This document shows, in pieces, positions 9,396-53,172 of a DNA stretch of 64,000 nt (positions within the stretch are counted from its first letter, which is position 1; each line of letters opens with the position of its first letter). The notes under the pieces were generated by a model, which made no database searches, had not been told where the DNA came from, and saw only the letters and a program-made list of their open reading frames with translations. The stretch is from Candidatus Omnitrophota bacterium (GTDB lineage Bacteria; Omnitrophota; Gorgyraeia; Aquiviventales; Aquiviventaceae), in contig JAHFGV010000005.1 in assembly GCA_023247255.1 (NCBI GenBank), positions 6,067 through 70,066 of the forward strand, read 5' to 3'. The translations under genes were made by a program, and so were the position numbers.

Positions 9396-9425
9396 TTCAC
9401 AAAGCGAAGGCTCTTGTGTTATAAT
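9396..9425 (+). promoter_or_regulatory. sigma70-like promoter candidate for the atp operon
   Basis: TTCACA (9396-9401), 18-nt spacer, then TGT-TATAAT (extended -10, hexamer 9420-9425), about 20 nt before the atpZ ATG. Confidence 0.4.
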
Positions 9426-9445
9426 CCCCCCACCTGTGGGGGATC

Positions 9446-9676
9446 ATGCGTGCCGATTGGTCGACTTGGGCCCAGCAAGCGGGATTGTTGACGTCCATTC
9501 CCTTTGTATTGCTAGTCGGTCCCGCGATCGGCTACTCTCTCGGTGCTGCCTTAGATCATCGATGGCCCTATACTCCTTGTGGATTGGTGGGAGGAATTGT
9601 CTTAGGATTTCTCGCAAGTGGTAAGGTAACGATTCAATTGATTCGTCAGGCGCAGAAACTCAATCGCAATGGGTGA
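9446..9676 (+). CDS. atpZ: AtpZ-like small membrane protein of F-ATPase operons
   Basis: 76 aa with two TM helices and the pattern GPAIGYSLGAALD...GLVGGIVLG. Sits at the head of the atp operon. Confidence 0.55.
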   Translation: MRADWSTWAQQAGLLTSIPFVLLVGPAIGYSLGAALDHRWPYTPCGLVGGIVLGFLASGKVTIQLIRQAQKLNRNG

Positions 9677-10073
9677 CGCATTCATTCGACGACTGTGGCG
9701 CTTGGGCAGTACCCTCTTGTTAGTCAGTGGAGGGCTTGCCGGTTCTTTTTACGGTATTCGGGGTGCGCTCGGTGTGCTCTCAGGAGGGTTCTGGAATTTA
9801 ATCAACCTCTGGTGCCTTCAGAATTTGCTCAACGCTTGGTTAGGCACTACGCGCTCTACCCGTCGAGTTGTGGGGTGGATAGTGCTTAAGTTCTTATTCC
9901 TCTATGGGCTCGTAGTGCTCCTGTTGCGCCATCCAGCCATTTCCCTCATGGGGTTTGGTATTGGGTTTACTATTATATTGATCAGCGCCATCGGTATCTT
10001 TGCGGTCCAAGCAAGGGGTTTGATTGTCACTGTTTCCCAAGCAGGTCCCGGTGCAGTCCGTGGCTATCGCTGA
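9669..10073 (+). CDS. atpI: ATP synthase protein I-like membrane protein
   Basis: 134 aa, about 4 TM helices, positioned between atpZ and atpB. Confidence 0.5.
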   Translation: MGDAFIRRLWRLGSTLLLVSGGLAGSFYGIRGALGVLSGGFWNLINLWCLQNLLNAWLGTTRSTRRVVGWIVLKFLFLYGLVVLLLRHPAISLMGFGIGFTIILISAIGIFAVQARGLIVTVSQAGPGAVRGYR

Positions 10074-32995: not shown

Positions 32996-33032
32996 AATCT
33001 GCCATTTCCGGCTATGATATCTGCGGAGCATC

Positions 33033-34550: not shown

Positions 34551-34627
34551 GCCTGCCCGCCTGTCGTCCAAAAGTGTGATCTGGGTCATAGTTCGTCTCC
34601 CTGCGTTCTGAGAAGATTACTTAGGCG

Positions 34628-36183: not shown

Positions 36184-36269
36184 ATCCTCTAAGACTTAAC
36201 GCCGTGTTGGCGCAAAAACATACCTCGGAGGCGCAAACGTCCTCTGTATGATAAAATAGAAACCTTGCC

Positions 36270-38051
36270 ATGACACCCTTCGTCCGATTCCTTGGATCGC
36301 TGAGCATCGCGGTGCCGCTGCTGATCGTGATTGCCCTGGTGCTCGCATGGGGCACCATCTATGAAACCCGCTTTGGCACGGCGGCGGTTCAGCGCTTTGT
36401 CTACCACGCGTGGTGGTTTCAAGCGCTCCTCGGCTTTCTGGCGATCAACCTCGCCGTGGCTGCGCTCGAGCGCTATCCGTGGCAGCGTCGACACCTGCCG
36501 TTTGTCCTGGCCCACATCGGCATCATCCTCATCCTGATTGGGGGGATTATCGGAGCCCGATTCGGCATCGAGGGTCAGATGATCATTCCGGAAGCTCAGG
36601 CCGAGCGCGTCCTCGAGCAGCCAGGCAATGTCCTTGTAGTGCGCCAGCCAAACCCGGGTCTATCTATCATCATCCCCACGCAGTTTGAAACGCAGGCCTG
36701 GGTGCATGAGCCGAACGCGACCTTTCCCGTGACTCTCGATGGCCGGACGATTGCGCTCACCGTCGACCGCTACTATCCCGACGCGGTGACGGATGAAGAA
36801 ATCACAAGCGGTGGCGCTGAGGACAATCCGGCTCTCCACATGCTGCTTACGCACAACGAGCAGCAGGATGCGGTGTGGCTCATGAGCAGGGACTCTGAGC
36901 GTTTTGGTATGGGCTGGGGTGAGGCGCACGTGCTCTTCCTTGAACCAAGAACTGCTTCTGAAGTCGATCGGCTTACTGGGGCTGGGCGCTCACCTGGCGT
37001 CGCGTCTGCGCGAGGCGTGATCGTTATCCGCCTACCCGGGATGCATGCGCCACGCGAGATTCCGGTTCCCGATGAGCGCAACCGATCCGTCGACGTCACA
37101 GGCACGCCCTATCAGATCATCTTCAAGGATTACTTTCCCGATTTTGCGATTACCGAACAGGGGATCGTGAGCCGCTCGCTTGAGGCCAATAACCCTGCGG
37201 TTTCTTTCATCATCACCGGACCCGAGGGAACCGATGCGTATTTGCTGTTTGCGCTCCATCCCGATTTTCAAACGATCCATGGCTTCGAACATAAGATCGA
37301 CGCCCAGGTGAGTTATACCCACACCGCCAGCGCTGCGCTGCCTCCCAATTGTATCGGGCTCATCCGTGCACCATCAGGAACCTTAATCGGTATCTTGACC
37401 GGCAGCGGGACCGATCGATCCGTGATCAATCCGCTGGAACTTGGCAAACGGTACACCCACCCTTCGCTCGGCTATCAGTTTGAAGTCGCCACGTACTATC
37501 CCCGTGCGGTTCTCACGCAGCACGTCACCAACCGAGGAGATGAAATCAAAGCCGAAACGCTTCATCTCGTGGGACGTGAAGGTGATCAGAGCGCAGAGGC
37601 GTGGTTGGGTTTGCGCGGCTCGGCAGAATTCGCGTTGGGAAAGGAGCCGGTTACGATTGAGTACCGACCGGCCCGATGGGAGCTGCCGTTTACCATCAAG
37701 CTCTTGGACTTTCGCAAGATCGACTATCCAGGAACGCAGATGGCCTCGGCGTTTGAAAGCGACGTGGAGCTCACCGATTCTCAGCGGGGTGTCATCCTGA
37801 TGCGCAAGATTACGATGAACAACCCCCTGCGCTACCGCGGGTTTAGCGTGTACCAATCCAGCTACATCGAAGGCCCGACGGAAACCACAGTGCTCTCGGT
37901 GCGCAATGATCCAGGAACCCCATTTGTTTATGCGGGGTTCATCATTGTGATCGCCGGCGTCGTCAGTATGTTTGTGCTCGGCACCCCCTCCACGACCGCA
38001 ACCCCTCCGCCTTCGATCCGGCGAGTACGCAGAAGGAGCCGCTCTTCATGA
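36270..38051 (+). CDS. ccsB: cytochrome c biogenesis protein CcsB/ResB (System II)
   Basis: 593 aa with the ResB-like N-terminus (SIAVPLLIVIALVLAWGTIYE), a large periplasmic domain and a C-terminal TM. Confidence 0.85.
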   Translation: MTPFVRFLGSLSIAVPLLIVIALVLAWGTIYETRFGTAAVQRFVYHAWWFQALLGFLAINLAVAALERYPWQRRHLPFVLAHIGIILILIGGIIGARFGIEGQMIIPEAQAERVLEQPGNVLVVRQPNPGLSIIIPTQFETQAWVHEPNATFPVTLDGRTIALTVDRYYPDAVTDEEITSGGAEDNPALHMLLTHNEQQDAVWLMSRDSERFGMGWGEAHVLFLEPRTASEVDRLTGAGRSPGVASARGVIVIRLPGMHAPREIPVPDERNRSVDVTGTPYQIIFKDYFPDFAITEQGIVSRSLEANNPAVSFIITGPEGTDAYLLFALHPDFQTIHGFEHKIDAQVSYTHTASAALPPNCIGLIRAPSGTLIGILTGSGTDRSVINPLELGKRYTHPSLGYQFEVATYYPRAVLTQHVTNRGDEIKAETLHLVGREGDQSAEAWLGLRGSAEFALGKEPVTIEYRPARWELPFTIKLLDFRKIDYPGTQMASAFESDVELTDSQRGVILMRKITMNNPLRYRGFSVYQSSYIEGPTETTVLSVRNDPGTPFVYAGFIIVIAGVVSMFVLGTPSTTATPPPSIRRVRRRSRSS

Positions 38052-39709
38052 AACGCGCCTTTATGACGATTATGACGATGGCGTTATTGTTCGGAGCCTT
38101 GGCGAGATTTATGAGCGTATTCGCAGATCAGCCCGTTGCCCTGCCGCGCGAGGCGCTCGAGACCATACGTCGCATGGCCATCCAACACAATGGACGCAAC
38201 AAACCCTTCGACAGCTTTGCGCGAGAAACCCTCCGACTCATCACCGGCTCAGCGCGCGTGGGAAATGAAGATCCTGTCGAAACCATCTTGACCCTCATGG
38301 CCAGTCCCGACCATGGGCAGCAGTTGCTGCTTGTGTCGGTTCCATTTATCCCTCTGCGAAAGGCTCTGGGCATGGATCCCAAGGCGACGCAGGTGTCCTA
38401 CAACGATTTGGTTGCGACACGCAAGCTCATGCGGCTGCTGCCCCCGATTGTCCAAAAGCAGCAGCGCGAAGAGAAACTTTCGATGCTGGAAGAAGAGACG
38501 ATGGATGTCTTCCAGCGATTTGCCACCCTGAGCACTCTGCTCGAGCAAAAGCTCAACCTCGTGCCTCCACCTGTTGGATCTGCAGAGCGTGTGTGGCAGC
38601 TTGTTGAGGAGCCGTCGGGCTATGCGCCAGCGCAGCAAGAGACCATTCGTACCGCATGGTCCGGGCTGATCGGTGCGGTGCAAGCTGGGCGGGGCGATGC
38701 GGTGATTACCTCAGCGCGTCATGCGGCAGATGCGCTGCGAGATCTGAGCCCTTCTCGCTATCCTCCTCGGTGGCGATTAGCGTTCGAGGTGTTCTACAAC
38801 CACGTCGCGCCATTTCGAATCGCCCAAGGGTTCTATCTGCTCTCAGCGATCCTGTTGTTTCTGAGCCTTGGCGCATTGAAGAAATTCCGGCCAGCGCTTT
38901 TGGGATTTGTCGCTTGCTGCTTCGCGTTTCTCGCGCATGGATCAGGTATCCTGATGCGCGTTGTTCTGGGTGAGCGTCCGCCGGTCTCGAATTTTTTTGA
39001 GACCACGCTGTGGCTGCCGTTCGTCGCAGTCGCCATTGCGCTCATCCTGGAACGTGTGTACCGGACTCGTTACATCGCCCTGGCTGCGGCGATCCTTGCG
39101 ACAATCACCCTGGTTCTCGCGGATCATCTGCCGCTGGACTCGAGCATCTCTCCGGTGGTCGCCGTGCTCCACAGCAATCTCTGGTTGACGATTCACGTGT
39201 TGACCATCGTGGCGAGCTACGGCGCGCTGACCCTGGCGATTGTGCTGGCGCACATGTATGGGGGGATGTACCTGAGTCGCCGCACGAGCGGCTCAACGTT
39301 AGATGCGTTGGGGACATTTCTCTATCGCGTCATCCAAGTCGGCGTCGTGTTATTGGCGGCGGGGATCATGCTGGGCGCCGTGTGGGCCAACGCCTCTTGG
39401 GGCCGTTACTGGGGCTGGGATCCGAAAGAGACCTGGGCGTTGATTACCCTCATCTGGTTCCTGGCGCTGCTGCACGGACGCTTCGCCGGATGGATCAGCG
39501 GTGTTGGCGTAGCCCTGTGCACCGTCGGCGGATTTTTTCTGCTGCTGATGACCTACTACGGTGTCAGCTTCTATCTCGTCGGTCTGCACAGCTATGCCGG
39601 TGCTCATGCCAAGCCCTTGCCCCCAGTTCTCATCGCCTACCTCATCGCTGAACTGGCGTTCATCATCGTGGTGAGCGTCTCAGCCATACTCCGCAGGCGG
39701 CCAGCGTAG
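38048..39709 (+). CDS. ccsA: cytochrome c biogenesis protein CcsA/ResC with N-terminal extension
   Basis: The ATG overlaps the ccsB stop (ATGA). W-rich motif WGRYWGWDPKETWALITLIW. About 240 extra N-terminal residues. Confidence 0.85.
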   Translation: MKRAFMTIMTMALLFGALARFMSVFADQPVALPREALETIRRMAIQHNGRNKPFDSFARETLRLITGSARVGNEDPVETILTLMASPDHGQQLLLVSVPFIPLRKALGMDPKATQVSYNDLVATRKLMRLLPPIVQKQQREEKLSMLEEETMDVFQRFATLSTLLEQKLNLVPPPVGSAERVWQLVEEPSGYAPAQQETIRTAWSGLIGAVQAGRGDAVITSARHAADALRDLSPSRYPPRWRLAFEVFYNHVAPFRIAQGFYLLSAILLFLSLGALKKFRPALLGFVACCFAFLAHGSGILMRVVLGERPPVSNFFETTLWLPFVAVAIALILERVYRTRYIALAAAILATITLVLADHLPLDSSISPVVAVLHSNLWLTIHVLTIVASYGALTLAIVLAHMYGGMYLSRRTSGSTLDALGTFLYRVIQVGVVLLAAGIMLGAVWANASWGRYWGWDPKETWALITLIWFLALLHGRFAGWISGVGVALCTVGGFFLLLMTYYGVSFYLVGLHSYAGAHAKPLPPVLIAYLIAELAFIIVVSVSAILRRRPA

Positions 39710-39820
39710 CGTTCTCGCCTTCTTCCCTAAGGGATCATGCGCCCAAGGAATTCTCATCTCCTCTTTATCCTTGACCTCCTCTACGGCACATCTTAGTTGT
39801 CCAGCCGACAAAAGGTCTCC

Positions 39821-39834
39821 ATGACGTTCGTCAT
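39821..39834. promoter_or_regulatory. Crp/Fnr-type dyad site 3
   Basis: CC-ATGAC-GTTC-GTCAT-GGAAGA. Confidence 0.5.
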
Positions 39835-39929
39835 GGAAGACTCTTATCCGGAGCCGCTATCCTCTTTTTCATGACACATCCGTGAATCACGGCTACAAAT
39901 GGCCGACTTGCTGACGATAAGGTCGTTTC

Positions 39930-39960
39930 TCACAAAGTTCACACCCTGTGAACATTGTGA
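39930..39960. promoter_or_regulatory. 31-nt near-perfect palindrome (operator or hairpin candidate)
   Basis: TCACAAAGTTCACA-CCC-TGTGAACATTGTGA. Arms are 13/14 complementary. Confidence 0.35.
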
Positions 39961-40157
39961 GAGGTACGTTACCGTCGACGAAGCGTGAAATTCCCGCCAG
40001 GTTTGCAACGGAGCTGTCCGGGAAGCGAGGCCGCTCCGACGAGACAGCGGTTGCCTTCGAACTCAATGTTCCCGGTTCCGTACGGTTTTGCAACACTTCT
40101 CGCTCCGCCATCGACGAGGAGCAGCGTAACTCAGACGCGATTCAGGACATAACACAG

Positions 40158-40213
40158 GACTCATGAAACAGACGTGAGCACTGCCACTAACCTCGATGCA
40201 TTTTGTAAAACCC
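40158..40213 (+). repeat. 55-nt satellite copy of the 2645-2699 element end
   Basis: GACTCATGAAACAGACGTGAGCACTGCCACTAACC is identical in both copies. CGATGCATTTTG..AAAACCC follows with 2 differences. Confidence 0.8.
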
Positions 40214-42250
40214 CAGTTACGACTGACGCCTTCCAAGTCTTCTTGCACCTGCTGTAGTGAATCCATCTGCTGCAGCGAATCTCGCGAAAGGTTGACAGGC
40301 TTGTCTGGCCAGCGTCACACGCCGAGCCTCATCGTAACCGGCAACCCCAACGTCGGGAAAAGCGTCATCTTCCAGCTCCTCACCGGCCGCTACGCCACCG
40401 TGTCGAACTATCCGGGCACCACGGTTGCAGTTACCCGAGGATCGGCTTCGTTAGACGGCCGGGTGGTTCGCGTCTACGACACGCCAGGAATCAATAGCTT
40501 GTTCGCCGCCTCAGAAGATGAGCTGGTCGCACGCGATCTGCTGCTGGGTGAACGAACCACCGTGGTGCAGGTTAGCGATGCCAAGAACCTGCTACGTGCC
40601 CTCACACTGACCTTGGAACTGGCTGAAGCTGGACTTCCATCCGTCCTGGATCTGAACATGATGGACGAAGCCAGGGAACGTCGAATCAGCATTGATACGA
40701 AGAAGCTCTCAGGGTTACTTGGGATCTCGGTTGTGCCGACCATTGCAACGCAGCGGTGGGGTATCGAGCGGTTGCGTCGAGTGATCCTGCAGGCACAGCA
40801 GGCTCGGGTTGGCGTTTGCTACCCCAAAGTGATTGAAGATGCCATTGCCAAGATGGTGGAGGTCCTACCAAAGACGCTGGGCGTACGGAAAGCCCTGGCG
40901 TTGTTCTGGCTTGCTGGGGATCGGAACATCATCGAGCAGCTCAAGAAGCAATTCGACCCATCAATCATCGAGGCGCTGACGGCAATCGCTGCGCAGGCTC
41001 AAGAACAGACCTCTGGCCCATTAGGGTTGCTGATCAGTCAAGCCCGACTCCGCGAGGCCGAGCGACTCGTCAAGCAGGTGATGACGACTGCACCTCTGGA
41101 GCGCCAGCGGTGGTTTTACCGCCTGGGTGATTGGGCGATGCACCCGGTTTGGGGGGTGCCCATCCTCGTTGGCGTCCTGGTCATGATGTACTTCCTCGTC
41201 GGAAATCTCGCAGCTCAGCGTGGCGTAGATTTCCTAGAAGACGTGGTCTTTGGGCGCTACCTCACCCCAGTCTTTCAGTGGGTTGTTCAAGGGGCGATCC
41301 CTTGGGGGTGGCTCAAGGCGCTCTTCATCGGTGAGTACGGCCTGCTGACGATGGCTCTGCCCTACGCTTTTGCGATCATCCTGCCCATCGTGGGGATGTT
41401 CTTTCTCTGCTTCGGATTGCTTGAGGATGTGGGCTACCTTCCTCGACTAGCCGTGATGGCCAATCGCTTTTGTCGGCTCCTGGGTCTCAACGGCAAGGCG
41501 GTGCTCCCACTCGTGCTGGGGTTGGGATGCGACACAATGGCCACGATGACCGCCCGCATCCTCGACTCGGATCGGGATCGGATCATCACAACGCTCTTGT
41601 TGGCACTCGGCATCCCTTGTTCCGCTCAACTGGGCGTCATCCTAGCGATGCTGGCGGGCCGCCCGCCGTTGGCCCTGGGGATTTGGCTTGGCGTGTTACT
41701 CATGGTGATCATTGTGGTTGGTCAAGCCGCGTCAAGAATCCTGCCGGGCGAGGAGAGCCCGTTTCTCTACGAGATCCCACCGCTTCGCACGCCGAAGCTG
41801 TCGAATGTGCTGATCAAGACGCTGGGTCGCATCGAGTGGTATGTGAAAGAAGCCGTCCCGCTGTTCTTCCTGGGAACCCTGGTGTTATTCCTCCTCGATG
41901 TGACAGGAGCCCTGGCGGTCTTCGAGCGAATCGGGACCCCGCTCATTGTCTCGTGGCTCGGGCTGCCAGCCAAAGCGACCAGTGCATTTCTGGTGGGATT
42001 TCTCCGACGGGATTTTGGTGCGGCCGGGCTCTTCGCGCTTCAGCGAAACGGAATGTTATCTGGAGTCCAGACCGTCGTCAGCCTCGTTACCATCACGCTG
42101 TTTGTCCCCTGCATCGCCCAGTACTTCATGATGGTCAAAGAGCGCGGCTGGAAACTCGCAAATCTGATGGCGGGGTTTGTCTTCGGGATGGCGCTGCTTG
42201 TTGGAGGTCTCCTCTTGCGCGTTCTCACCCTGTTGCGAGTTACCCTATGA
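40196..42250 (+). CDS. feoB: ferrous iron transporter FeoB
   Basis: G-domain motifs GNPNVGKS and NYPGTTV, followed by a polytopic permease. The ATG at 40196 lies in the repeat, so the true start is uncertain (TTG near 40293 is possible). Confidence 0.9.
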   Translation: MHFVKPQLRLTPSKSSCTCCSESICCSESRERLTGLSGQRHTPSLIVTGNPNVGKSVIFQLLTGRYATVSNYPGTTVAVTRGSASLDGRVVRVYDTPGINSLFAASEDELVARDLLLGERTTVVQVSDAKNLLRALTLTLELAEAGLPSVLDLNMMDEARERRISIDTKKLSGLLGISVVPTIATQRWGIERLRRVILQAQQARVGVCYPKVIEDAIAKMVEVLPKTLGVRKALALFWLAGDRNIIEQLKKQFDPSIIEALTAIAAQAQEQTSGPLGLLISQARLREAERLVKQVMTTAPLERQRWFYRLGDWAMHPVWGVPILVGVLVMMYFLVGNLAAQRGVDFLEDVVFGRYLTPVFQWVVQGAIPWGWLKALFIGEYGLLTMALPYAFAIILPIVGMFFLCFGLLEDVGYLPRLAVMANRFCRLLGLNGKAVLPLVLGLGCDTMATMTARILDSDRDRIITTLLLALGIPCSAQLGVILAMLAGRPPLALGIWLGVLLMVIIVVGQAASRILPGEESPFLYEIPPLRTPKLSNVLIKTLGRIEWYVKEAVPLFFLGTLVLFLLDVTGALAVFERIGTPLIVSWLGLPAKATSAFLVGFLRRDFGAAGLFALQRNGMLSGVQTVVSLVTITLFVPCIAQYFMMVKERGWKLANLMAGFVFGMALLVGGLLLRVLTLLRVTL

Positions 42251-42323
42251 TTCCACCACCTGTGTGTTGGCCGCAGGCCGGGCGCTGGCGTGGCACGCGG
42301 CCCCCTCGATGGAGCCAGCGACC

Positions 42324-42344
42324 GGTTTCGCCTTCGGCGAAACC
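42324..42344 (+). terminator. stem-loop after feoB (weak terminator candidate)
   Basis: GGTTTCGCC-TTC-GGCGAAACC, a perfect 9-bp stem. No clear U-tract. Confidence 0.3.
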
Positions 42345-42359
42345 ATATAGTGTGGTAGG

Positions 42360-42563
42360 ATGACCTGTCCGCTCTGCGGCTTTGCCTTCGGAGAGAGGGA
42401 GCAAACCTGGGCTTGTCAGCGTTGCCCCTTGGCGTCCGGCTGTCGACTTACCCGCTGCCCACGATGCGGCTATGAGTGGGCAGAGGAATCACGGTTGGTG
42501 AACTGGCTCAAAGAGCGCTGGCGTATCCTCGAACGCCCCAACGGTCATGACGATCCATCGTGA
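42360..42563 (+). CDS. small Cys-rich zinc-ribbon protein
   Basis: 67 aa with three CXXC pairs (CPLC, CQRC, CPRC) plus one extra Cys. Overlaps the downstream regulator gene. Confidence 0.45.
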   Translation: MTCPLCGFAFGEREQTWACQRCPLASGCRLTRCPRCGYEWAEESRLVNWLKERWRILERPNGHDDPS

Positions 42564-43254
42564 GCAGATTGAAGAGTTGCTGGAGCTGTGCTGGACAGCG
42601 GCAGAGGACGGCCTGGCGCCGCTTGATCGCCACCAGTTGCCGACGCAGCTTCTGTGTTTTCTTCCGCACCCCATTGAGCCAAACGGCGATGTCCAACAGG
42701 AAACTATCGATGTGATGGTTCAGGAAGGACTCCTGTTGAGTGACGGTCGGCGCATCCGATTAAGTGCGACGGGAACGCCCCAGGCCAAAGAGGTGGTCCG
42801 TCGGCATCGCCTTACCGAGGTGCTCCTCCATACCCTCCTTGACATCTCCGAAGAATCTATGGAGTCGACCGCTTGCCAAGTGGAGCATATCCTCAATGCC
42901 GAGGTGACCGAAGCGGTGTGCACATTCCTGGGTCATCCCCCGATCTGCCCGCATGGCCGTGCCATCCCACAGGGCCATTGCTGTGAAACTTCGCGCGCGA
43001 GGCTAGAGCCACTCATTGTTCCTTTAGCTCGCTTAACGATTGGCGAGACAGCGAGCGTCGCGTTTGTACACACCACGCGACACGCCTATCTTCAGCGTCT
43101 GAGCACGTTGGGGCTTGCACCCGGACGGCCCATTCGATTGCGTCAAACGCAACCTGCGCTTGTTGTGCAAGTGGGAGAAACCGAGCTCGCCTTAGATAAC
43201 GAGGCTGGCCAAGAAATCTTCGTGAGGCGAAACCCACACAACACCCCTGCGTAG
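42547..43254 (+). CDS. DtxR/MntR-family metalloregulator with C-terminal FeoA (SH3-like) domain
   Basis: VVRRHRLTEVLLHTLL...ACQVEHIL...GHPPICPHGRAIP (metal-site and dimerisation region). The C-terminus is FeoA-like. Confidence 0.7.
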   Translation: MTIHREQIEELLELCWTAAEDGLAPLDRHQLPTQLLCFLPHPIEPNGDVQQETIDVMVQEGLLLSDGRRIRLSATGTPQAKEVVRRHRLTEVLLHTLLDISEESMESTACQVEHILNAEVTEAVCTFLGHPPICPHGRAIPQGHCCETSRARLEPLIVPLARLTIGETASVAFVHTTRHAYLQRLSTLGLAPGRPIRLRQTQPALVVQVGETELALDNEAGQEIFVRRNPHNTPA

Positions 43255-43308
43255 CCTTCCACACGACCCAAGTCCCCTGGACGCCGTGTAATCAGAATCT
43301 ATCCATCC

Positions 43309-43322
43309 ATGACTCCCGTCAT
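43309..43322. promoter_or_regulatory. Crp/Fnr-type dyad site 4
   Basis: CC-ATGAC-TCCC-GTCAT-GGAAGA. Flanks are identical to site 3. Confidence 0.5.
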
Positions 43323-43581
43323 GGAAGAGCCTAGAGCAGATGCTGTAGGCTTTGATGTGCAGATGGACACAGTGACGGTCCGTGAGAAAATTAAGCGGCT
43401 GAAGACTACTCGACAGGCGCTGAGCTGGTCCGAGGAGGTCTGTGCCTATCACCTGGGCGTGACGTACTCGACCTTGAACCGTTGGGAGCGCGGCGAGTCC
43501 TTGCCGAAGAGCCGCGCGGTGCTCAAAGCGATTGACCAGTTCATTGCCCGGCACAGCAAGGAACAAGTCGGAAGGAGGTAA
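43309..43581 (+). CDS. XRE-family helix-turn-helix protein
   Basis: HTH sequence [29 protein letters not shown]. The track ATG at 43309 is part of the dyad, so ATG 43363 is the more likely start. Confidence 0.55.
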
Positions 43582-43586
43582 CAGGC

Positions 43587-43760
43587 ATGTTTGGGAATAT
43601 TGGGTTTCCAGAGCTGTTGGTGATTTTGTCGATCGTGCTCCTCCTCTTTGGGGCCAAGCGGCTGCCGGAGATTGCGCGTGGCTTGGGGAAGTCGCTCTCT
43701 GAATTCAAGAAGGGACTGAAGGAGATCGAGCACGACGTCAACGATGTCAAGAAGGTCTGA
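43587..43760 (+). CDS. tatA: twin-arginine translocase subunit TatA/E
   Basis: 57 aa, below the track cutoff. [42 protein letters not shown] lies upstream. Confidence 0.85.
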
Positions 43761-43766
43761 GCGAAG

Positions 43767-45365
43767 GTGGCGGCTCCGGTCAACCGGCCGATGACGGAAG
43801 CGTTGAGGATGCGTCTCGGTATGCTGATTGCGGTGGTTGCGCTAGGCTCAGGGTGCGCCAAGGAGCCATCCGCAACACTCTCGAGCGCGAAACCGTCTGT
43901 GACCCCGCAGATCGTTGAAATGGGCCGGCGGCTTTACAACAAGCAGTGCGCGGTCTGTCATGGCCCGAAGGGCGCGGGCGACGGCCAGGCAGCTTACCTC
44001 CTCTATCCTAAGCCGCGCGATTTCACACAAAACGAATTCCGACTTGTCTCGACCAGCACGATGCAGGCCACCGATGAAGATCTGTTTCTCACCATTACCC
44101 GTGGGACGCCCGGCTCCGCGATGCCCTCCTGGGAGACGCTGACGTCGGAGCAGCGCTGGGCGTTGGTGTATTACGTTCGCCACCTCACGGGTGCGAGCGA
44201 ATCCATTGATCCAGCCTCAATCATCCACGTCCCTCCAGAGACGCCGAAGACCCCCGAGAGCATCGCGCGTGGCCGCCAAATTTTTGTCCAGGCGTGCGCG
44301 TCCTGCCATGGGCCACAAGGCCGCGGTGATGGGCAGCAGGTCATGGCGGACAACGCCGGATATCCTATCAAGCCACGCGATCTCACCGCAGGCGTCTTTA
44401 AGGGGTCGTCTGAGAGCAACGATTTGTATTACCGAATTGTCGCTGGATTGCCGGGCAGCCCGATGCCAAGTTACGCTGACGTCTACACCGACGAGCAGTT
44501 GTGGGATCTCATCCACTACGTTCAATCGCTCGTACCGTCGGGAGTCGAGGATCGCGTCCGCATGCATGCACGGAGCATCCGCGCCCATCGGGTCAGAGGC
44601 GACATCCCATTAGAACCGACAGCGAAAATCTGGAGCACGAGACAACCGGTCTCTATCGCCCTCACACCATTGTGGTGGCGCGATCACCGAGTCGAAGGGG
44701 TCGAGGTCAAAGCGTTGCACAACGGCAAAGAGCTCGCGCTTCAATTGTCATGGAACGACCAGACGCGTGACAACTCGACCCTCACCCCGCAGGCGTTTTC
44801 CGATGGTGTCGCGGTAGAATTCTCCTTAGAACAGGACCCGCCGTTCTTTGGGATGGGTGACGCAAACGGAGTCGTGCAGATATGGCACTGGAAAGCCTCC
44901 TGGCAGGAGGACCTCAAGGGCTGGCAGGACGTGGAGACCGCCTACCCCAATGCTGCCGTGGATTGGTATCCCGCACAGCGTGACTATCAGCACGGTGAAC
45001 CCTCCGAGGTGAGCCAGTCGAGGACGGCCTCGCAGGACCCACGGTTCATGGGCGGATGGGGAGCGGGCAATCCCCTCTCCGATCCGAATCGAACGTCAGC
45101 GGCTGAGGAAGCGATGGCCAAGGGATTGGGGACGCTGACCTCACGCGCACCTTCGATGCAACGGATCCAAGCGGATGGTCTCTGGCAAGACGGTCGGTGG
45201 CAGGTCGTGCTGCATCGACCGCTTGCGCCCAACGAGGAGGGGGATCTGAGGCTGAAGCCTGGGCAGCAAGTCAGCGCGGCGTTTGCGATCTGGGATGGCC
45301 ATGCCGGGGATCGCAACGGCCAAAAGAGCGTGTCGATTTGGAACATCTTGGAGCTGGAGCGATAG
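43767..45365 (+). CDS. NxrC/EbdC-like gamma subunit candidate: lipoprotein with two class-I cytochrome c domains plus an EB_dh haem-b domain
   Basis: Lipobox VALGSGC. CAVCH and CASCH, each with a downstream MP(S). C-terminal EB_dh-like region FSDGVAVEF..FFGMG..VQIWHWKASW. GTG start, with ATG 43791 or 43809 as alternatives. Confidence 0.7.
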   Translation: MAAPVNRPMTEALRMRLGMLIAVVALGSGCAKEPSATLSSAKPSVTPQIVEMGRRLYNKQCAVCHGPKGAGDGQAAYLLYPKPRDFTQNEFRLVSTSTMQATDEDLFLTITRGTPGSAMPSWETLTSEQRWALVYYVRHLTGASESIDPASIIHVPPETPKTPESIARGRQIFVQACASCHGPQGRGDGQQVMADNAGYPIKPRDLTAGVFKGSSESNDLYYRIVAGLPGSPMPSYADVYTDEQLWDLIHYVQSLVPSGVEDRVRMHARSIRAHRVRGDIPLEPTAKIWSTRQPVSIALTPLWWRDHRVEGVEVKALHNGKELALQLSWNDQTRDNSTLTPQAFSDGVAVEFSLEQDPPFFGMGDANGVVQIWHWKASWQEDLKGWQDVETAYPNAAVDWYPAQRDYQHGEPSEVSQSRTASQDPRFMGGWGAGNPLSDPNRTSAAEEAMAKGLGTLTSRAPSMQRIQADGLWQDGRWQVVLHRPLAPNEEGDLRLKPGQQVSAAFAIWDGHAGDRNGQKSVSIWNILELER

Positions 45366-45367
45366 CC

Positions 45368-48300
45368 ATGTATCTGACGCGTCGTCAGTTTTTAAAACTC
45401 TCAGGAGCTACTGGAATCGGGTTGTATCTCGCCTCACGCGAGGTCTCGCTCTGGGCGCTGGAGCCGGTGAGCGAGATAGAGAATCCGCTCGCCTACTATC
45501 CTTCGCGAGACTGGGAGAAGCTCTACCGCGACCAGTACCGGTATGACAGCACCTTCTCCTGGGTCTGCTCGCCCAACGACACGCACGCCTGCCGGGTCCT
45601 GGCGTACGTGAGAAACGGCGTCGTGGTGCGTCTTGGCTCAGAGTACAACTATGAAACCTACGCCGACCTGTACGGAAACAAGGCCACTCCCAACTGGAAC
45701 CCGCGCCAGTGCGCCAAAGGTTTCACCTTTCATCGGCTCATCTACGGTCCTTACCGCTTGAAACATCCCATCATCCGTAACGGTTGGAAGCGCTGGGCCG
45801 ACGACGGATTCCCAACGCTGACCCCTGAGAAAAAGACACAATACAAGTTTGACTCGCGCGGCACAGACACTTTTGAAAAAATCAGTTGGGAGGATATCTA
45901 CGGCTACATTGCCCGCGGCCTCATCGCTATCGCTACGCGCTACAGCGGCGAGCCGGGCATAACACTCCTGCGCGCACAGGGCTATCCCGAGGAAATGATC
46001 CAAGCGATGGGTGGGGCCGGGACACGGACCTTGAAGTTCCGCGGCGGGATGGGCCTGCTTGGGGTGTTTGGCAAGTACGGCATGTACCGACTGGCGAACA
46101 CGATGGCGCTTCTCGATGTCCACCTGCGCGGTGTCAAGCCTGAGGAGGCGAAGGCCGGACGGACGTGGTCCAACTACACGTGGCACGGCGATCAGGCGCC
46201 GGGGCATCCCTGGGTGCATGGATTGCAGAACGCCGACTGCGATTTCAACGACCTTCGTTTTTCCAAGCTGATCATCCAGGACGGCAAGAACCTCTGCGAG
46301 AACAAGATGACCGACTCGCACTGGTTCATTGAATGTATGGAGCGTGGGGCAAAGCTGGTGACGATCGCGCCCGAATACAGCCCGCCGGCGTCGAAGTCGG
46401 ACTATTGGATTCCGATTCGCCCGCAGACCGATGCCGCGCTCTTCTTGGGTATCACGCGCCTCATGATCGACCGAGGCTGGTACGACCGGGAGTTTATCCT
46501 GAACTTCACCGACTTTCCGCTCTTGGTGCGAACCGACACCCTGCGGCGCCTTCGAGCGAATGAGATCCTGCCGGGCTACCAAGGGCAGTTGTCCAAGGAC
46601 GGCCCAAGCTACAAGCTCCAGGGATTGAAGGACGAGCAGTATGCCAAGTTGGGGGACTTCGTCGTCTGGGATGAATCCTCCGGAGCGCCCGCCGCAATCA
46701 CACGCGACGACGTCGGCAAGCGTCTCGTACAGAAAGGCGTCCACCCCGCGCTTGAAGGGACGTTTACACTCAACACGGTGGATGGGAAGCGTATTGAGGT
46801 GATGACGCTCTTTTCGCTCTATCAACTCCACCTCAAGGACTACGACCTTGATACCGTGCATGAGATCACTCGCGCGCCGAGAGAGCAGATCGAACAACTC
46901 GCGAAGGACATCGCCACTATCTCGCCAGTCGCGATCCACCAAGGCGAGGGCATCAACCACTACTTCCACGCCACCGAGGCCAATCGCGCCGCCTATCTGC
47001 CGCTGATGCTGACCGGCAACATCGGCCAACGCGGTGCTGGCTGCTACGGATGGGCCGGCAACTACAAGGCTGCGCTTTTCCAAGGCTCTCCATGGACCGG
47101 TCCGGGATTCAAAGGCTGGGTGGCCGAGGATCCGTTTGAGCCTAACCTTGACCCCAACGCGCACGGGAAAGACATCCACGCGCACGCCTACTTCAAGGAC
47201 GAAGAGCCGGCTTATTGGAACCACGGGGATAAGCCGCTGATCGTCGAGACGCCCAAGGGCGGCCGCAAGGTCTTCACCGGCAACACTCACATGCCCACAC
47301 CCACAAAGGCGATGCTTTTCACCAACGTGAACCTCATCAACAATGCCAAGTGGGTCTATGAGATGCTCAAGAACGTCAACCCGAATGTCGAGATGATCCT
47401 TTCTATCGACATCCAAATGACCGCTTCGATCGAATACGCGGACTTAGCACTGCCGGCGAATAGCTGGCTTGAGTTCGAGGGGCTGGAGGTTACGGCGTCA
47501 TGCTCCAACCCTTTCCTCCAGATCTGGAAGGGCGGGATTCCGCCTGTGTTCGACAGCCGGGATGATCTGGTGATTCTCGCCCAGATCGCCGAAGCGCTCG
47601 GCAAGGAAATCGGCGATACGCGCTGCAGCGACTACTGGAAGTTTGCGCTCGAGGGCAAGCGCGAAGTCTACATCCAGCGGCTGCTGGATTCCTGCACGAC
47701 GACGGTTGGCTATCGTCTGGAGGACATCATGGCGGGCAAGTACGGGCCGCCGGGGGCGGCACTCATGCTCTTTCGCACCTATCCCCGGATCCCCTTCTGG
47801 GAGCAGGTGCACGAGGACTTACCTTTCTACACCGACCACGGGAGGCTTTCGGCCTACACCGATGTGCCCGAGGCGATCGAGTACGGCGAGAATTTCATCG
47901 TCCACCGTGAAGGTGCGGAGGCGACACCCTACCTGCCGAACGTCATCGTCAGCAGCAACCCGTACATCCGCCCCAACGATTACGGTATTCCCTTATCGGC
48001 GGAGCACTGGGATGACCGCACGGTGCGCAACGTGAAGATGCCGTGGGATCAGGTCAAAGGCACAAAGAATTTCCTCTGGGAAAAGGGCTTTCAGTTTTAC
48101 TGTCTAACTCCCAAGAGCCGCCATCGCGTCCACTCGCTTTGGAGCAACGTGGACTGGCACCAAATCTGGGACTCCAACTTCGGCGATCCCTACCGGATGG
48201 ACAAACGCAGCCCTGGTGTTGGCGAACACCAGGTTCACATGAATCCCCAGGCGGCAAAGGATTTAGGGATCAATGACGGCGATTACGCCTATGTCGATGC

Positions 48301-48820
48301 GAATCCAGCAGATCGTCCCTACATTGGGGCGAAACCTGACGATCCGTTCTATCGGGTGGCGCGGCTGATGCTGCGTGTCAAGTACAACGCAGCCTACCCG
48401 TACAACGTCGTCATGATGAAGCACGGGACCTATATTGCCACCGAGAAATCTGTGAAGGCCCACGAGACGCGCAAGGATGGACGGGCCCTCTCCGCTGACA
48501 CCGGCTACCAGGCGAACTTCCGCTACGGGTCGCAGCAGAGTGTCACGCGCAACTGGCACATGCCGATGCACCAGACCGACTCACTCTTCCACAAGGCGAA
48601 GGTCTTCATGGGCTTTCTCTTCGGCGGCGAGGCGGACAATCACGCGGTCAACACGGTTCCGAAAGAGACGCTGGTGCGCGTGACGAAAGCGGAAGACGGC
48701 GGGTTGGGTGGCCAGGGCGTGTGGGCTCCGGCGACGACCGGCTATACCCCGGCCAACGAGAACGACACGATGAAGAAGTACCTCGAAGGCCGGTTCGTTG
48801 AGGAGAGCAAGAAATGGTAA
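45368..48820 (+). CDS. nxrA: periplasmic NxrA/NarG-type molybdopterin (bis-MGD) oxidoreductase alpha subunit
   Basis: ATG 45368, 1150 aa. TAT signal MYLTRRQFLKLSG. The N-terminal FeS region WVCSPNDTHACRV...RQCAKG resembles Nitrospira/anammox NxrA as I recall it. Confidence 0.85.
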   Translation: MYLTRRQFLKLSGATGIGLYLASREVSLWALEPVSEIENPLAYYPSRDWEKLYRDQYRYDSTFSWVCSPNDTHACRVLAYVRNGVVVRLGSEYNYETYADLYGNKATPNWNPRQCAKGFTFHRLIYGPYRLKHPIIRNGWKRWADDGFPTLTPEKKTQYKFDSRGTDTFEKISWEDIYGYIARGLIAIATRYSGEPGITLLRAQGYPEEMIQAMGGAGTRTLKFRGGMGLLGVFGKYGMYRLANTMALLDVHLRGVKPEEAKAGRTWSNYTWHGDQAPGHPWVHGLQNADCDFNDLRFSKLIIQDGKNLCENKMTDSHWFIECMERGAKLVTIAPEYSPPASKSDYWIPIRPQTDAALFLGITRLMIDRGWYDREFILNFTDFPLLVRTDTLRRLRANEILPGYQGQLSKDGPSYKLQGLKDEQYAKLGDFVVWDESSGAPAAITRDDVGKRLVQKGVHPALEGTFTLNTVDGKRIEVMTLFSLYQLHLKDYDLDTVHEITRAPREQIEQLAKDIATISPVAIHQGEGINHYFHATEANRAAYLPLMLTGNIGQRGAGCYGWAGNYKAALFQGSPWTGPGFKGWVAEDPFEPNLDPNAHGKDIHAHAYFKDEEPAYWNHGDKPLIVETPKGGRKVFTGNTHMPTPTKAMLFTNVNLINNAKWVYEMLKNVNPNVEMILSIDIQMTASIEYADLALPANSWLEFEGLEVTASCSNPFLQIWKGGIPPVFDSRDDLVILAQIAEALGKEIGDTRCSDYWKFALEGKREVYIQRLLDSCTTTVGYRLEDIMAGKYGPPGAALMLFRTYPRIPFWEQVHEDLPFYTDHGRLSAYTDVPEAIEYGENFIVHREGAEATPYLPNVIVSSNPYIRPNDYGIPLSAEHWDDRTVRNVKMPWDQVKGTKNFLWEKGFQFYCLTPKSRHRVHSLWSNVDWHQIWDSNFGDPYRMDKRSPGVGEHQVHMNPQAAKDLGINDGDYAYVDANPADRPYIGAKPDDPFYRVARLMLRVKYNAAYPYNVVMMKHGTYIATEKSVKAHETRKDGRALSADTGYQANFRYGSQQSVTRNWHMPMHQTDSLFHKAKVFMGFLFGGEADNHAVNTVPKETLVRVTKAEDGGLGGQGVWAPATTGYTPANENDTMKKYLEGRFVEESKKW

Positions 48821-49521
48821 ACGAGAGCCGCGCTTACCGCAATCGATGGAAATATCTATGTGCAGGGCTTACGAGCGTCATGCTCGTTCTAGGACTCACT
48901 CCAATGAGCTGGGCGAGGGATGATCTCCAGGTGTGGAATACCATCGAGCTCAGCAAGCGGCTCGGTCCACATTGGGAGGTGTTTTTCCTTCCGGAGATAC
49001 GGATACGCGATGATGCGGGCGAGTTCTTTTACCACGAGTACCGCCAGGGTGTGCGCTACAAGCCCTCCAAACACTGGCAACTCGGGCTCAATTACCTATT
49101 CGTTCGCAACGAGTCCTCCGGCAAACCGCTCGAGGAGCATACCGGCGAGCTCGACCTCACGCCTAAAACGACGCTAGGCCCCCTCGAGGTCTCTCTGCGA
49201 GGGCGGCTGGCGCTGCGGACCATTCAAGGCAGCACCGGCGAGCAGGAATGGCAGTTTCGAGTGATGCCGAAGGTCGCGTATCCGACCCAGTTCGTCGGTC
49301 ACAAGCTCATCCCCTACGCCGCCGATGATCTGTACTACGACTACACCCGCGACGCGTGGAACCAGAACCGGGTGTTCCTTGGTCTTGCCATCCCCATGGG
49401 CAAGGCGCTTGGCGCCGAGACGACGGTGGATGTCTACTACATGCTCCAGAGTCAACTCGGCAAACGGCACGACTGGAGCAGCAGCCACGTCCTGGGGACG
49501 AAACTGAGTGTCAGATTTTGA
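48814..49521 (+). CDS. small outer-membrane beta-barrel protein (DUF2490-like)
   Basis: 235 aa with a signal peptide (..TPMSWA) and amphipathic strand pattern. The C-terminal ..GTKLSVRF ends in Phe. Overlaps the nxrA stop (ATGGTAA). Confidence 0.5.
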   Translation: MVNESRAYRNRWKYLCAGLTSVMLVLGLTPMSWARDDLQVWNTIELSKRLGPHWEVFFLPEIRIRDDAGEFFYHEYRQGVRYKPSKHWQLGLNYLFVRNESSGKPLEEHTGELDLTPKTTLGPLEVSLRGRLALRTIQGSTGEQEWQFRVMPKVAYPTQFVGHKLIPYAADDLYYDYTRDAWNQNRVFLGLAIPMGKALGAETTVDVYYMLQSQLGKRHDWSSSHVLGTKLSVRF

Positions 49522-49541
49522 CGAGATGAGGCGTGTGAGCG

Positions 49542-49818
49542 ATGCCGTATAAGGAACCCGAACCGGATGATCCTTTGGAGCTGACGGGAGTCGTCCTACC
49601 TGCTTCGGACGAGACGTCACTGAAGGAAATGGCCGTGTGTTTCGTCGAAGAGTTCCTGCGCGACGGCTGGTCGGATGAGCAGCTTCGTGCGATGTTCCGC
49701 AATCCCTACTACCGAGGTCCCTACCTCGTGTGGCGGCAGAAGGGCGATGCATACGTGGAGGCTGTGATCCAGGAAGTCCGTCACATCTGGCGCCCCAACG
49801 CAGCCGGAGGAGCGACTC

Positions 49819-49826
<8 letters not shown>
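49542..49826 (+). CDS. hypothetical 94-aa protein
   Basis: Acidic N-terminus and W/Y-rich core, with no signal peptide. The stop overlaps the nxrB start by 8 nt, suggesting co-translation. Confidence 0.35.
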
Positions 49827-51057
<1,231 letters not shown>

Positions 51058-51087: not shown

Positions 51088-51867
51088 ATGAATCCTACGA
51101 TAAATCTTCCTTCGGAAAATTTAATTGAGGACCTGCTGGCGAGAAGCGCCGTCTATCATGCGCTGTCGCTGCTGCTGCGCCATCCAGACGCGGCCGCCAT
51201 GAAGTGGCTGTCGATGCGGGAATATCAGCGGCTGGCTGAGGTCGTGGAGATGCTGACGAAGGAACGAAAGGGATCATTGCACGAGGCTGTGCGGTATATG
51301 ATGACGGCGTTCGAGGGGGTGTCGATTGCGGAGTGGACCCGCGACTATGAACGGATCTTCGGACACTCGGTCCAGAGCGCGGCGCCACCCTATGAACTGG
51401 AGTACGGCGAGGAGCACAGCCATCGGCAGCCGCAGGAGCTGGGCGATATCGCGGCATTCTATCGAGCGTTCGGCCTTCGCGTGGCCTTTGCCTCGCATGA
51501 GCGGATCGATCATATCGTCACGGAGTGCGACTTCATGCAGTACCTGCTCTATAAGCAAGCCTGTGCACTTGATGAGGGGAGCGAGGAGCGGGCGGATGTG
51601 TGCGAAACGGCAGCCCAGCAGTTCCTCGCTGATCACCTCGGTCGCTGGGGTCCGGCCTTTGCCCTAAGACTCTCGCGAGCGGCTGAGCAGAGAGTCTTGG
51701 GAGCGCTTGCCGATACGACCCTGGCATGGCTGGTGCAGGATTGCGAGCGTATGCAGGTGCCTACCGGATCACGCGACCTCCCGCTGCGACTGCCCAAGGA
51801 ACGGGATGAGGTGGGATGCGCAGCGTGCGCACCTCAGCAGCTAGGAAATACTGATGGCAAGCGTTGA
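51088..51867 (+). CDS. TorD/NarJ-family redox enzyme maturation chaperone
   Basis: 259 aa with the pattern YHALSLLL...EYERIFG...PPYELEYG...DHI..ECDFMQYL. Confidence 0.7.
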   Translation: MNPTINLPSENLIEDLLARSAVYHALSLLLRHPDAAAMKWLSMREYQRLAEVVEMLTKERKGSLHEAVRYMMTAFEGVSIAEWTRDYERIFGHSVQSAAPPYELEYGEEHSHRQPQELGDIAAFYRAFGLRVAFASHERIDHIVTECDFMQYLLYKQACALDEGSEERADVCETAAQQFLADHLGRWGPAFALRLSRAAEQRVLGALADTTLAWLVQDCERMQVPTGSRDLPLRLPKERDEVGCAACAPQQLGNTDGKR

Positions 51868-52801
51868 TGTCCAGTTTGATCCAGCATTTGTGGAAGAGAC
51901 GGTTTTCCTTGAATTGAGGAACCGGGAAGCCCTCGGCAATTGCGCGATGGCGCAGGCGTTTCATGTACAGCGCAGCGCCCTCTATGACACCACGACCGCA
52001 ACAGGCGAGCGCGAGGCGCGATTTCAGCAGCTGGCAGCCCGCTATTTCCAGGAGCTTGGATTCTCCGAGCTCTTTGCGAAACGGTTCGAAGAGTTTCCGC
52101 TGATCGGAGCGCATGTTCCTGTTGCGCTGGTGCGACGCGCCTGGAGCCGCAAGGAAGAGCGCGTTGAGTTATACGTTCCCCCTACGCCCGGTGGGGGCTC
52201 AAGCCTCAAAGCTTTTCCGACGCTGTGGATCGGTTTTCAGGTCGCCCGGTGCTTAAATCGCGAGCAGCTCGTGGCGTTCCTGCGGCATGAGCTCATGCAC
52301 ATCTCTGATATGTTTGACCCGGCGTTCGGGTACCAACCGCATCCAGACTTCGGCGCGGAGTGTGAAACAGAAGAGGACCTAATCCGTAAGCGCTTCCGAT
52401 TGCTGTGGAACCTCGTTGTGGATGGGCGGATGCGCCGGAAGGGCTGGCCGGCCGTTGACCATGGAACGACACGTCTTCGGGAGTTTGAGCGGGCGTTTGC
52501 CTCCTGGGACCCGCAGCGCCGCGAGGCGGTGTGGCCGGATCTTGGCAACCGAGCATCCTGCACGCAACGTGAGCTCCTGGAACTGGCGAAGGACGAACGT
52601 CTCACCCGGATGCTGGGGCAAGGCGGCGTTCGCTGCCCCTTGTGCCATTTTCCGACGCGGGAGGGCGTGTGCGATTGGCGTGGCGAACGCGCGGCTGTTG
52701 CTGAAGCGATCCAAACGGATTACGCCTGGTGGGATCCGGTTCAGGGAGCATGCCGGCAGTGCTTCGAGTTGTATCGCGCAAGGCTACCGGTGATGGGATG
52801 A
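51854..52801 (+). CDS. hypothetical HExxH-motif protein with C-terminal Cys4 zinc ribbon
   Basis: 315 aa with LRHELMHISD (HExxH) and CPLCH..C..CRQC near the C-terminus. Overlaps both neighbouring genes. Confidence 0.45.
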   Translation: MASVDVQFDPAFVEETVFLELRNREALGNCAMAQAFHVQRSALYDTTTATGEREARFQQLAARYFQELGFSELFAKRFEEFPLIGAHVPVALVRRAWSRKEERVELYVPPTPGGGSSLKAFPTLWIGFQVARCLNREQLVAFLRHELMHISDMFDPAFGYQPHPDFGAECETEEDLIRKRFRLLWNLVVDGRMRRKGWPAVDHGTTRLREFERAFASWDPQRREAVWPDLGNRASCTQRELLELAKDERLTRMLGQGGVRCPLCHFPTREGVCDWRGERAAVAEAIQTDYAWWDPVQGACRQCFELYRARLPVMG

Positions 52802-53172
52802 CGCGCGAAGACGCAAATGCGACGAACGGCGAAATCAATCGGCGCACGTTTCTCGCCTCGGCGCCTCGGCACCTGCTGGACGGGCTGAGAGCGCTGATGA
52901 GCGATCTCAGAGGGCTCTCGCCGCCTGTCTTGGATGACCAGGCATGGCCGCTTCCTCGAAAGGTGGCGATGCTGGATGTCTCGCGGTGTCTCGCGTGGGG
53001 AGGAGGGGGCTGTCAGGTGTGTTATCTCCGGTGTCCCCTGCGTGAGCGTGCGATGGTGTTTGAGGATGGCAAACCAACGGTGGTGGCTTCCATGTGCGAC
53101 GGCTGTGGTGTCTGTGTCGAGGCGTGCGAAGCCGTCAATGACCTTGGAGCGATGACGCGTGTGAGTGTATGA
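52798..53172 (+). CDS. TAT-signal 4Fe-4S ferredoxin-like protein
   Basis: ATG 52798 overlaps the upstream stop. NRRTFLAS, then the Cys clusters CLAWGGGGCQVCYLRCP and CDGCGVCVEAC. Confidence 0.6.
   Translation: MTREDANATNGEINRRTFLASAPRHLLDGLRALMSDLRGLSPPVLDDQAWPLPRKVAMLDVSRCLAWGGGGCQVCYLRCPLRERAMVFEDGKPTVVASMCDGCGVCVEACEAVNDLGAMTRVSV

Follow-up and report, generated by a model that had tools for sequence, protein, structure and literature searches.

Enzymes of the nitrite oxidoreductase (NXR) type are the source of most natural nitrate, and phyla of groundwater and sediment commonly encode relatives whose role is unknown. Here we analyzed a window of 64,000 nucleotides (nt) from a Candidatus Omnitrophota bacterium (contig JAHFGV010000005.1, positions 6,067 to 70,066) that carries a gene cluster for an enzyme of this type. 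The genes of its catalytic subunits, alpha (NxrA-type) and beta (NxrB-type), are separated by two further open reading frames (ORFs) of 235 and 94 amino acids (aa), the first of which is predicted to encode an outer-membrane beta-barrel. Why would the gene of an outer-membrane protein lie between those of the catalytic subunits of a periplasmic enzyme, and what does each of the two genes have to do with that enzyme? The explanation that we favor, with a probability of roughly 0.6, is that the 94-aa gene (hereafter small94) is a core member of this type of cluster and that the barrel gene is a generic porin that was inserted recently.

Two coupled genes between alpha and beta

An earlier reading of this DNA that used the letters alone (hereafter the sequence-only reading) had described the 235-aa ORF as starting within the stop region of alpha, the stop of the 94-aa ORF as overlapping the start of beta, and both as genuine members of the operon. 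These descriptions hold. The 235-aa ORF (48814-49521, + strand) begins with an ATG at 48814 that overlaps the alpha stop (AAATGGTAA), and the stop codon of small94 (TAA) falls within the first beta codons (ATGCCTAA), with an 8-nt overlap with the beta ATG. No intrinsic-terminator-like site was detected on the + strand from the alpha stop to the beta start, and no promoter-like site was found within either the barrel gene or small94, where counts were at the level of shuffled sequences. The tight coupling, together with the absence of internal terminator-like or promoter-like sites, argues that the two co-oriented genes are members of one operon. Both are real genes and not chance ORFs, because database homologues are numerous (95 for the barrel; more than 1000 clusters at 90% identity, or 654 at 50%, for small94) and because the ratio of nonsynonymous to synonymous divergence (dN/dS) is 0.25-0.31 for the barrel and 0.06-0.10 for small94. 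By its dN/dS the barrel is under purifying selection. On the opposite strand, an ORF that is also 235 aa long (49174-49881, - strand) extends from the beta start through small94 into the barrel gene, of which it covers the 3' half; we saw no sign that it is a real gene.

Conservation and possible role of the 94-aa protein

Related clusters were fetched via the beta subunit (70-89% identity) as 80 species-representative genome loci, all from metagenome-assembled genomes (MAGs) labelled Omnitrophota, Planctomycetota, Acidobacteriota, Methylomirabilota, Binatia, Deltaproteobacteria/Desulfobacterales, and other groups. The alpha-beta junction lies within the contig in 73 of these loci, and small94 presence was counted on those. 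A homologue of small94 sits between alpha and beta in 71 of the 73, across many phyla. Its start typically lies 1-20 nt downstream of the alpha stop, and its end overlaps with the beta start over 4, 8, or 17 nt. Reverse look-ups from relatives of small94 (39-96% identity) returned the order gamma-alpha-small-beta-delta-p3xx in three cases out of three. The two related clusters that have no small94, from a Schekmanbacteria MAG (L073) and a MAG labelled Hydrothermarchaeota (L089), show alpha-to-beta gaps of 127 and 27 nt, respectively.

The protein is acidic and rich in aromatic residues, as the sequence-only reading had stated, with an isoelectric point of 4.79, 16 Asp and Glu versus 10 Lys and Arg, and 11 aromatic residues. 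It carries no signal peptide. Its relatives are nearly always stand-alone proteins of 85-150 aa, and all sources name the family hypothetical. The AlphaFold2 model of small94 (predicted local distance difference test, pLDDT, 82.7) consists of an extended N-terminus followed by helices at residues 24-40, 45-52, and 58-83, and the most conserved motif, DPxDPxELxGVxLP, is located in the extended N-terminal stretch. No Pfam or NCBIfam match was obtained for small94, and a Pfam scan of 28 diverse members at E<=5 gave scattered noise only. The family profile retrieved only designed repeat proteins, with no matched stretch, from the PDB sequences, and a Foldseek search of the PDB with the model gave a best E of 1.7 and no fold match.

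Four known types of protein were considered as identities for small94 and rejected. A fragment or paralogue of the NarJ-like delta subunit received an hhalign probability of 1%. For a NarJ/TorD-type chaperone, no PF02613 match appeared at E<=5 in the 28 members. An isomerase of the NxrX/PpiC type would have a rotamase domain, which small94 lacks, and the model is a three-helix bundle. NapD-type chaperones, which bind signal peptides of the twin-arginine translocation (Tat) pathway, have a ferredoxin-like alpha/beta fold; small94 has no Pfam match, an all-alpha model, and no PDB fold match.

Our literature search on genes located between nxrA and nxrB returned only gene tables of Kuenenia and the nxrX gene of Nitrobacter. 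The Nitrobacter NXR is of the other type, which faces the cytoplasm. Its nxrX (norX) lies between nxrA and nxrB and is predicted to encode a peptidyl-prolyl isomerase that aids NXR folding (PMC4786786). It resembles small94 as an accessory gene between alpha and beta with a presumed role as a folding helper, a positional analogy only, and it differs in that small94 has neither a rotamase nor any other Pfam domain. In Kuenenia, two unnamed ORFs (kustd1701 and kustd1702) are found between nxrA and nxrB (PMC6423088).

We propose that small94 belongs to the ancestral core of a widespread clade of periplasmic NXR-type clusters with the order gamma-alpha-small-beta-delta-p315. We infer that its product, usually translationally coupled to beta, may bind NxrA/NxrB in the cytoplasm before Tat export, because its position is near-universal, it is coupled to beta, and it has no signal peptide. 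We give about even odds to a role as an assembly or escort factor and prefer it over that of a co-exported small subunit. As a structural fourth subunit, small94 would hitch-hike through the Tat system with NxrA/NxrB and stay on the periplasmic enzyme. Its near-universal presence and its overlap with the beta start do suggest equimolar synthesis, and NxrB in this enzyme class likewise has no signal peptide and is co-exported. However, no PDB chain matches the small94 family profile, and purified Kuenenia NXR contains only the A, B, and C subunits, plus NXR-T in tubules (PMC8387239). Furthermore, the two Kuenenia ORFs between nxrA and nxrB, which are likened to small94 by position alone, were transcribed but not detected in the proteome (PMC6423088). 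We consider a place for small94 in the mature enzyme to be the less likely role.

A predicted outer-membrane barrel of the DUF2490 family

The 235-aa protein begins with a basic n-region (R6, R9, R11, and K13) and a hydrophobic core, with a cleavage site between SWA and RDD. This signal peptide was judged by inspection and by the helix that AlphaFold2 places at residues 5-27; A34, D36, and D37 are invariant or nearly so in the homologue alignment. At the other end, the sequence closes with ..LSVRF, and F235 is kept in at least 90% of 83 homologues. The protein matches PF10677 (DUF2490) with E=1.8e-24 and 86.9 bits, for a Pfam cut-off of 29.8 bits, over residues 39-219 and profile positions 2-182 of 186, and a precomputed match to the same family exists for 94 of 94 close homologues. 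An AlphaFold2 model built on 83 sequences reached a mean pLDDT of 91.5. DSSP assigned to it 11 long strands plus a three-residue element, and Foldseek against the PDB returned outer-membrane barrels only. With a Sec signal peptide, a barrel model, and a C-terminal aromatic residue, the protein is confidently predicted to be an outer-membrane beta-barrel of DUF2490. The signal peptide, the barrel, and the aromatic C-terminus had all been pointed out by the sequence-only reading, which also named the resemblance to DUF2490 and proposed a hidden Markov model search and structural modelling as checks; both checks bear it out.

In most strands of the barrel, one face is hydrophobic; the opposite face is polar and better conserved, and invariant Arg, Glu, and Tyr are frequent on it. 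The invariant residues R63, R77, R129, R131, R149, R186, E75, E108, E112, Y175, and Y209 lie mostly on these polar faces, which would presumably line the lumen. DUF2490 has been described as an outer-membrane barrel with Sec signal peptides and a buried Arg/Glu/Tyr network, composed across 238 members of two cations, two anions, and one tyrosine (bioRxiv 10.64898/2026.07.29.741452), and the pattern seen in the barrel model may correspond to this network. The family is listed in TCDB as a putative porin family, TC 1.B.81, whose function is not established (PMC4827864). The likeness of the 235-aa protein to DUF2490 thus extends from the profile match to the signal peptide, the fold, the C-terminus, and the polar faces, in a family that has no member of known function. 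In the few papers found to mention this family, there is no precedent for a DUF2490 gene inside a molybdoenzyme operon.

In size and fold, the model resembles KdgM and NanC, the small monomeric 12-stranded porins for acidic sugars (PDB 4PR7, 2WJR, and 8XUA). Sequence identity to them is 8-10% and there is no Pfam match to that family, so this is a resemblance of fold and not membership. The DUF2490 gene would accordingly encode a Sec-exported outer-membrane barrel of about 12 strands. A porin-cytochrome conduit, which came to mind through the multihaem cytochromes encoded upstream, was rejected: with MtrB-type barrels as the size reference, about 12 strands are too few to sheath a cytochrome.

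Distribution of the barrel gene

The sequence-only reading had implied that the gene pair is a feature of NXR-like clusters, and had named conservation in homologous clusters as the test. That idea stands for small94 and fails for the barrel: none of the 80 species-representative loci, each searched within +/-10 kb, carries a DUF2490 gene. The barrel directly follows alpha only in the window and in five close relatives. The order alpha-barrel-small-beta is complete in two metagenome contigs (L090 and L091, about 83% nucleotide identity to the window) and in a MAG contig (L099), and it extends as far as the contig reaches in a further metagenome contig (L101). The fifth relative, L100 (1-3567), contains the 3' end of nxrA and the barrel, followed by a gene pair for a ConA-like protein and a major facilitator superfamily (MFS) transporter in place of small94 and beta; either the contig is chimeric, or this order stems from a genuine rearrangement between two copies of the barrel. 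At 999 nt, the alpha-to-beta distance of the window is longer than in any of the 73 loci, where the maximum is 723 nt. No barrel paralogue was found elsewhere in the window.

In other lineages, the spacer between alpha and beta takes different inserts. L011, the closest genome representative, encodes a 117-aa ORF with two predicted transmembrane helices between alpha and small94 (9423-9776), and in another locus (L018) a GIY-YIG ORF (Pfam E=5e-15) separates small94 from beta (7328-7744).

Outside the operon, copies of the barrel were found after a ChrB_C gene (L093, 91% identity) and behind a gene pair for a ConA-like (3-keto-disaccharide-hydrolase-like) protein and an MFS transporter (L096, 81% identity). 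A NarK-type nitrate/nitrite transporter beside these other copies was rejected, as the adjacent MFS proteins have no NarK match. Both of these contigs end inside or just after the barrel gene, as at assembly breaks that are caused by repeats. Further members of the barrel subfamily are flanked by glycosylase and NUDIX genes, adjoin a TonB-dependent receptor gene, or lie near a pyruvyl transferase gene. In three more loci (L001-L003), a DUF2490 copy with 64% identity follows ResB/CcsA and precedes the TatA-gamma genes of a different NXR-type cluster, and therefore the barrel has been linked to such a cluster at least twice. In L001, the copy comes directly after CcsA, at the place that FeoB occupies in the window.

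Taken together, the outer-membrane barrel gene between the catalytic-subunit genes is real, but it is probably a recent and narrowly distributed insert and not a property of NXR-like clusters, and the conserved and undescribed element of the pair, as far as the compared loci indicate, is the 94-aa gene and not the barrel.

Relative age of the barrel gene

The proportion of synonymous differences (pS) was calculated for six pairs among four full loci. It is 0.13-0.23 for the barrel, versus 0.35-0.59 for alpha, 0.29-0.51 for beta, and 0.27-0.62 for gamma, which places the synonymous divergence of the barrel 2-4 times below that of the flanking genes. As a control we used 40 windows of up to 235 codons each from the genes that flank the barrel (medians 0.58 and 0.60). 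The barrel lies below all 40, whose minimum of 0.37 belongs to the 94-codon window of small94. Its pS is uniformly low along the gene, and the signal-peptide region has the highest proportion of nonsynonymous differences. Codon bias was rejected as the source of the low pS: the effective number of codons (47.8) and the GC content at third codon positions (0.74) are unremarkable, and the bias is stronger in alpha and beta.

The same contrast is seen at the level of DNA. Positions 48908-49519 of the window are 89-95% identical across the window, the five relatives with the barrel after alpha, and the two copies after ChrB_C and MFS genes (L090, L091, L099, L101, L093, L096, and L100), whereas the neighbouring genes and even the signal peptides of these loci are far more diverged. 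High similarity runs from the signal-peptide cleavage site to the stop codon, also in the copies from unrelated contexts: nucleotide identity to the window is 93.5% for L093 and 89.4% for L096, with quite different signal peptides. No other homologue exceeds 75% identity, and third codon positions are saturated in these comparisons. The start codon itself has turned over while its overlap with the alpha stop was kept, being ATG in the window and GTG one codon downstream in L090, L091, and L100. Across the region, GC content stays at about 0.6 without a composition shift, and no direct or inverted repeats above chance flank the insert.

Our reading is that the barrel module shares a more recent ancestry than its flanks. 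The route could have been the spread of an insertion allele by recombination or exchange among several copies. Alternatively, the low pS could stem from a function of the nucleotides themselves, for example as an RNA structure, a regulatory element within the gene, or an antisense gene, which would be in keeping with the uniformly low pS and with the 235-aa antisense ORF that overlaps 49174-49881. However, the same conservation is seen in barrel copies outside the operon, the 5' half of the barrel gene, beyond the antisense ORF, is equally conserved, and no consistent conservation is seen in small94, which the antisense ORF also covers. With no promoter-like site in either gene and no + strand terminator-like site between them, we consider such a function highly improbable. 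Under the preferred explanation, the barrel would have entered a permissive spacer between alpha and small94 recently, in one Omnitrophota-like lineage, and would behave as a moving or recombining cassette. Its translation would be coupled to the alpha stop, and it would thereby be co-expressed with the enzyme.

Role of the barrel

We infer that the barrel is a generic channel for small solutes, possibly anions, and not a component of the enzyme. Nothing in the evidence gathered here places it in the enzyme or ties it specifically to nitrite or nitrate. The sequence-only reading had raised the passage of substrate or product, or the anchoring of the enzyme to the outer membrane, as possible roles, an idea that is speculative. 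The barrel might on this view be a dedicated partner, either a nitrite/nitrate channel or an outer-membrane dock, that was recruited for better substrate supply. Several observations speak for this: the coupling to the alpha stop survived the turnover of start codons, dN/dS is 0.25-0.31, the insert apparently spread rapidly among diverged lineages, the linkage in L001-L003 is a second, independent one, many invariant Arg are on the polar strand faces, and the closest folds are porins specific for acidic sugars. On the other hand, the barrel is missing from 80 of 80 species-representative clusters, barrels that are 89-93% identical in nucleotides adjoin ConA-like/MFS and ChrB_C genes that are unrelated to nitrogen metabolism, the adjacent MFS transporters are not of the NarK type, and more distant family members occur in housekeeping or TonB-receptor contexts. 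General porins, moreover, normally pass nitrite and nitrate. We judge such a partnership to be unlikely. Its more specific form, in which an oxyanion channel was recruited at least twice (between alpha and small94, and upstream of TatA-gamma) and is now spreading by a gene-specific sweep among diverged Omnitrophota-like populations, as it improves the delivery of nitrite/nitrate to the periplasmic enzyme, is in our view quite unlikely; if true, it would be the first function for the DUF2490 family.

Several points weigh against the explanation that we favor, a core small94 with a recently inserted generic porin. The linkage of the barrel to an NXR-type cluster on at least two occasions hints at a functional tie and not at a passenger. 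The low synonymous divergence could in principle reflect nucleotide-level constraint instead of recent spread, and the contig L100 may be chimeric. The barrel of L099 (6976-7070) has no canonical start codon: at the conserved start there is no ATG, GTG, or TTG (the codons are ATC GTA AAC), the signal-peptide region is still in frame, and the annotated start at 7066 would remove the signal peptide. The count of 12 strands is approximate, given the 11 long strands and the three-residue element assigned by DSSP. Finally, the choice between chaperone and subunit for small94 was made from the missing signal peptide, gene position, and analogy only.

The NXR-type cluster and its surroundings

The cluster runs in the order TatA, gamma, alpha, barrel, small94, beta, delta, p315, and small ferredoxin, followed by molybdenum cofactor genes (Table 1). 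Alpha aligns end to end with Kuenenia NXR-A (PDB 7B04, residues 1-1145, 1848 bits) and has a Tat signal (RRQFLK), and it is accompanied by an NxrB-type Fe-S subunit and an EB_dh-type haem subunit, as in periplasmic NXR of the Nitrospira/Nitrospina/anammox type. The likeness to Kuenenia NXR-ABC thus includes full-length alpha with its Tat signal, the Fe-S subunit beta, gamma of the EB_dh type, and a NarJ-like delta; it differs in that gamma in the window has two extra cytochrome c domains and in the order of the genes. The label nxr is sound as a statement of homology, and it implies neither an activity nor a physiological direction.

Table 1. Genes of the NXR-type cluster and parts of the barrel gene, with positions in the 64,000-nt window
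Feature	Position	Strand	Remarks
TatA-like gene, 57 aa	43587..43760	+	directly 5' of the cluster; PF02416 match in the equivalents of L001, L099, and L101
gamma subunit, two cytochrome c domains and EB_dh haem-b domain	43767..45365	+	Pfam EB_dh 2.1e-27, Cytochrom_C 9.4e-27; TIGR03477 3.6e-40, below its cut-off
alpha (NxrA-type) molybdopterin subunit, Tat signal MYLTRRQFLKL	45368..48820	+	Pfam Molybdopterin and TAT_signal; Kuenenia NXR-A match
signal peptide of the DUF2490 protein, residues 1-34, locus-specific	48814..48915	+	cleavage after SWA
mature DUF2490 barrel (predicted), about 201 aa, ends ..LSVRF	48916..49521	+	module probably inserted or exchanged recently
small94, acidic, 94 aa, no signal peptide	49542..49826	+	in 71/73 related clusters
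beta (NxrB-type) Fe-S subunit	49819..51057	+	Fer4_11 2.8e-24; TIGR03478 1.5e-77, below its cut-off; 70-89% identity in 80 genomes
delta, NarJ/TorD-type chaperone	51088..51867	+	PF02613 1.4e-19; TIGR03482 1.8e-22
p315, accessory, 315 aa, HELMH motif and C-terminal CxxC..CxxC	51854..52801	+	tblastn: in most related clusters
small ferredoxin-like protein, true start maybe further downstream	52729..53172	+	Fer4_10 3.6e-06; conserved in many related loci

For p315, no Pfam or NCBIfam family was found above threshold. Its gene follows delta in most related clusters and precedes alpha in the loci of Planctomycetota and Methylomirabilota. Upstream of the cluster, the window contains a respiratory and iron island (30639-43760) that comprises a cytochrome b, three multihaem cytochromes c, one of which is fused to a cytochrome b561-like domain, ResB/CcsA, FeoB, a DtxR-FeoA fusion, a helix-turn-helix protein, and TatA.

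Implications

For the enzyme, the barrel matters less than small94 does, and it offers a handle on the unstudied DUF2490 family. It also clearly illustrates that an operon can contain a gene younger than itself, and it serves as a warning that tight coupling within an operon should not be taken as evidence of an ancestral functional partnership. In turn, small94, for which there is neither a name nor a domain model, is a concrete candidate for an assembly factor or a subunit that has so far been missing, and it is relevant to the heterologous expression and the annotation of NXR-type enzymes.

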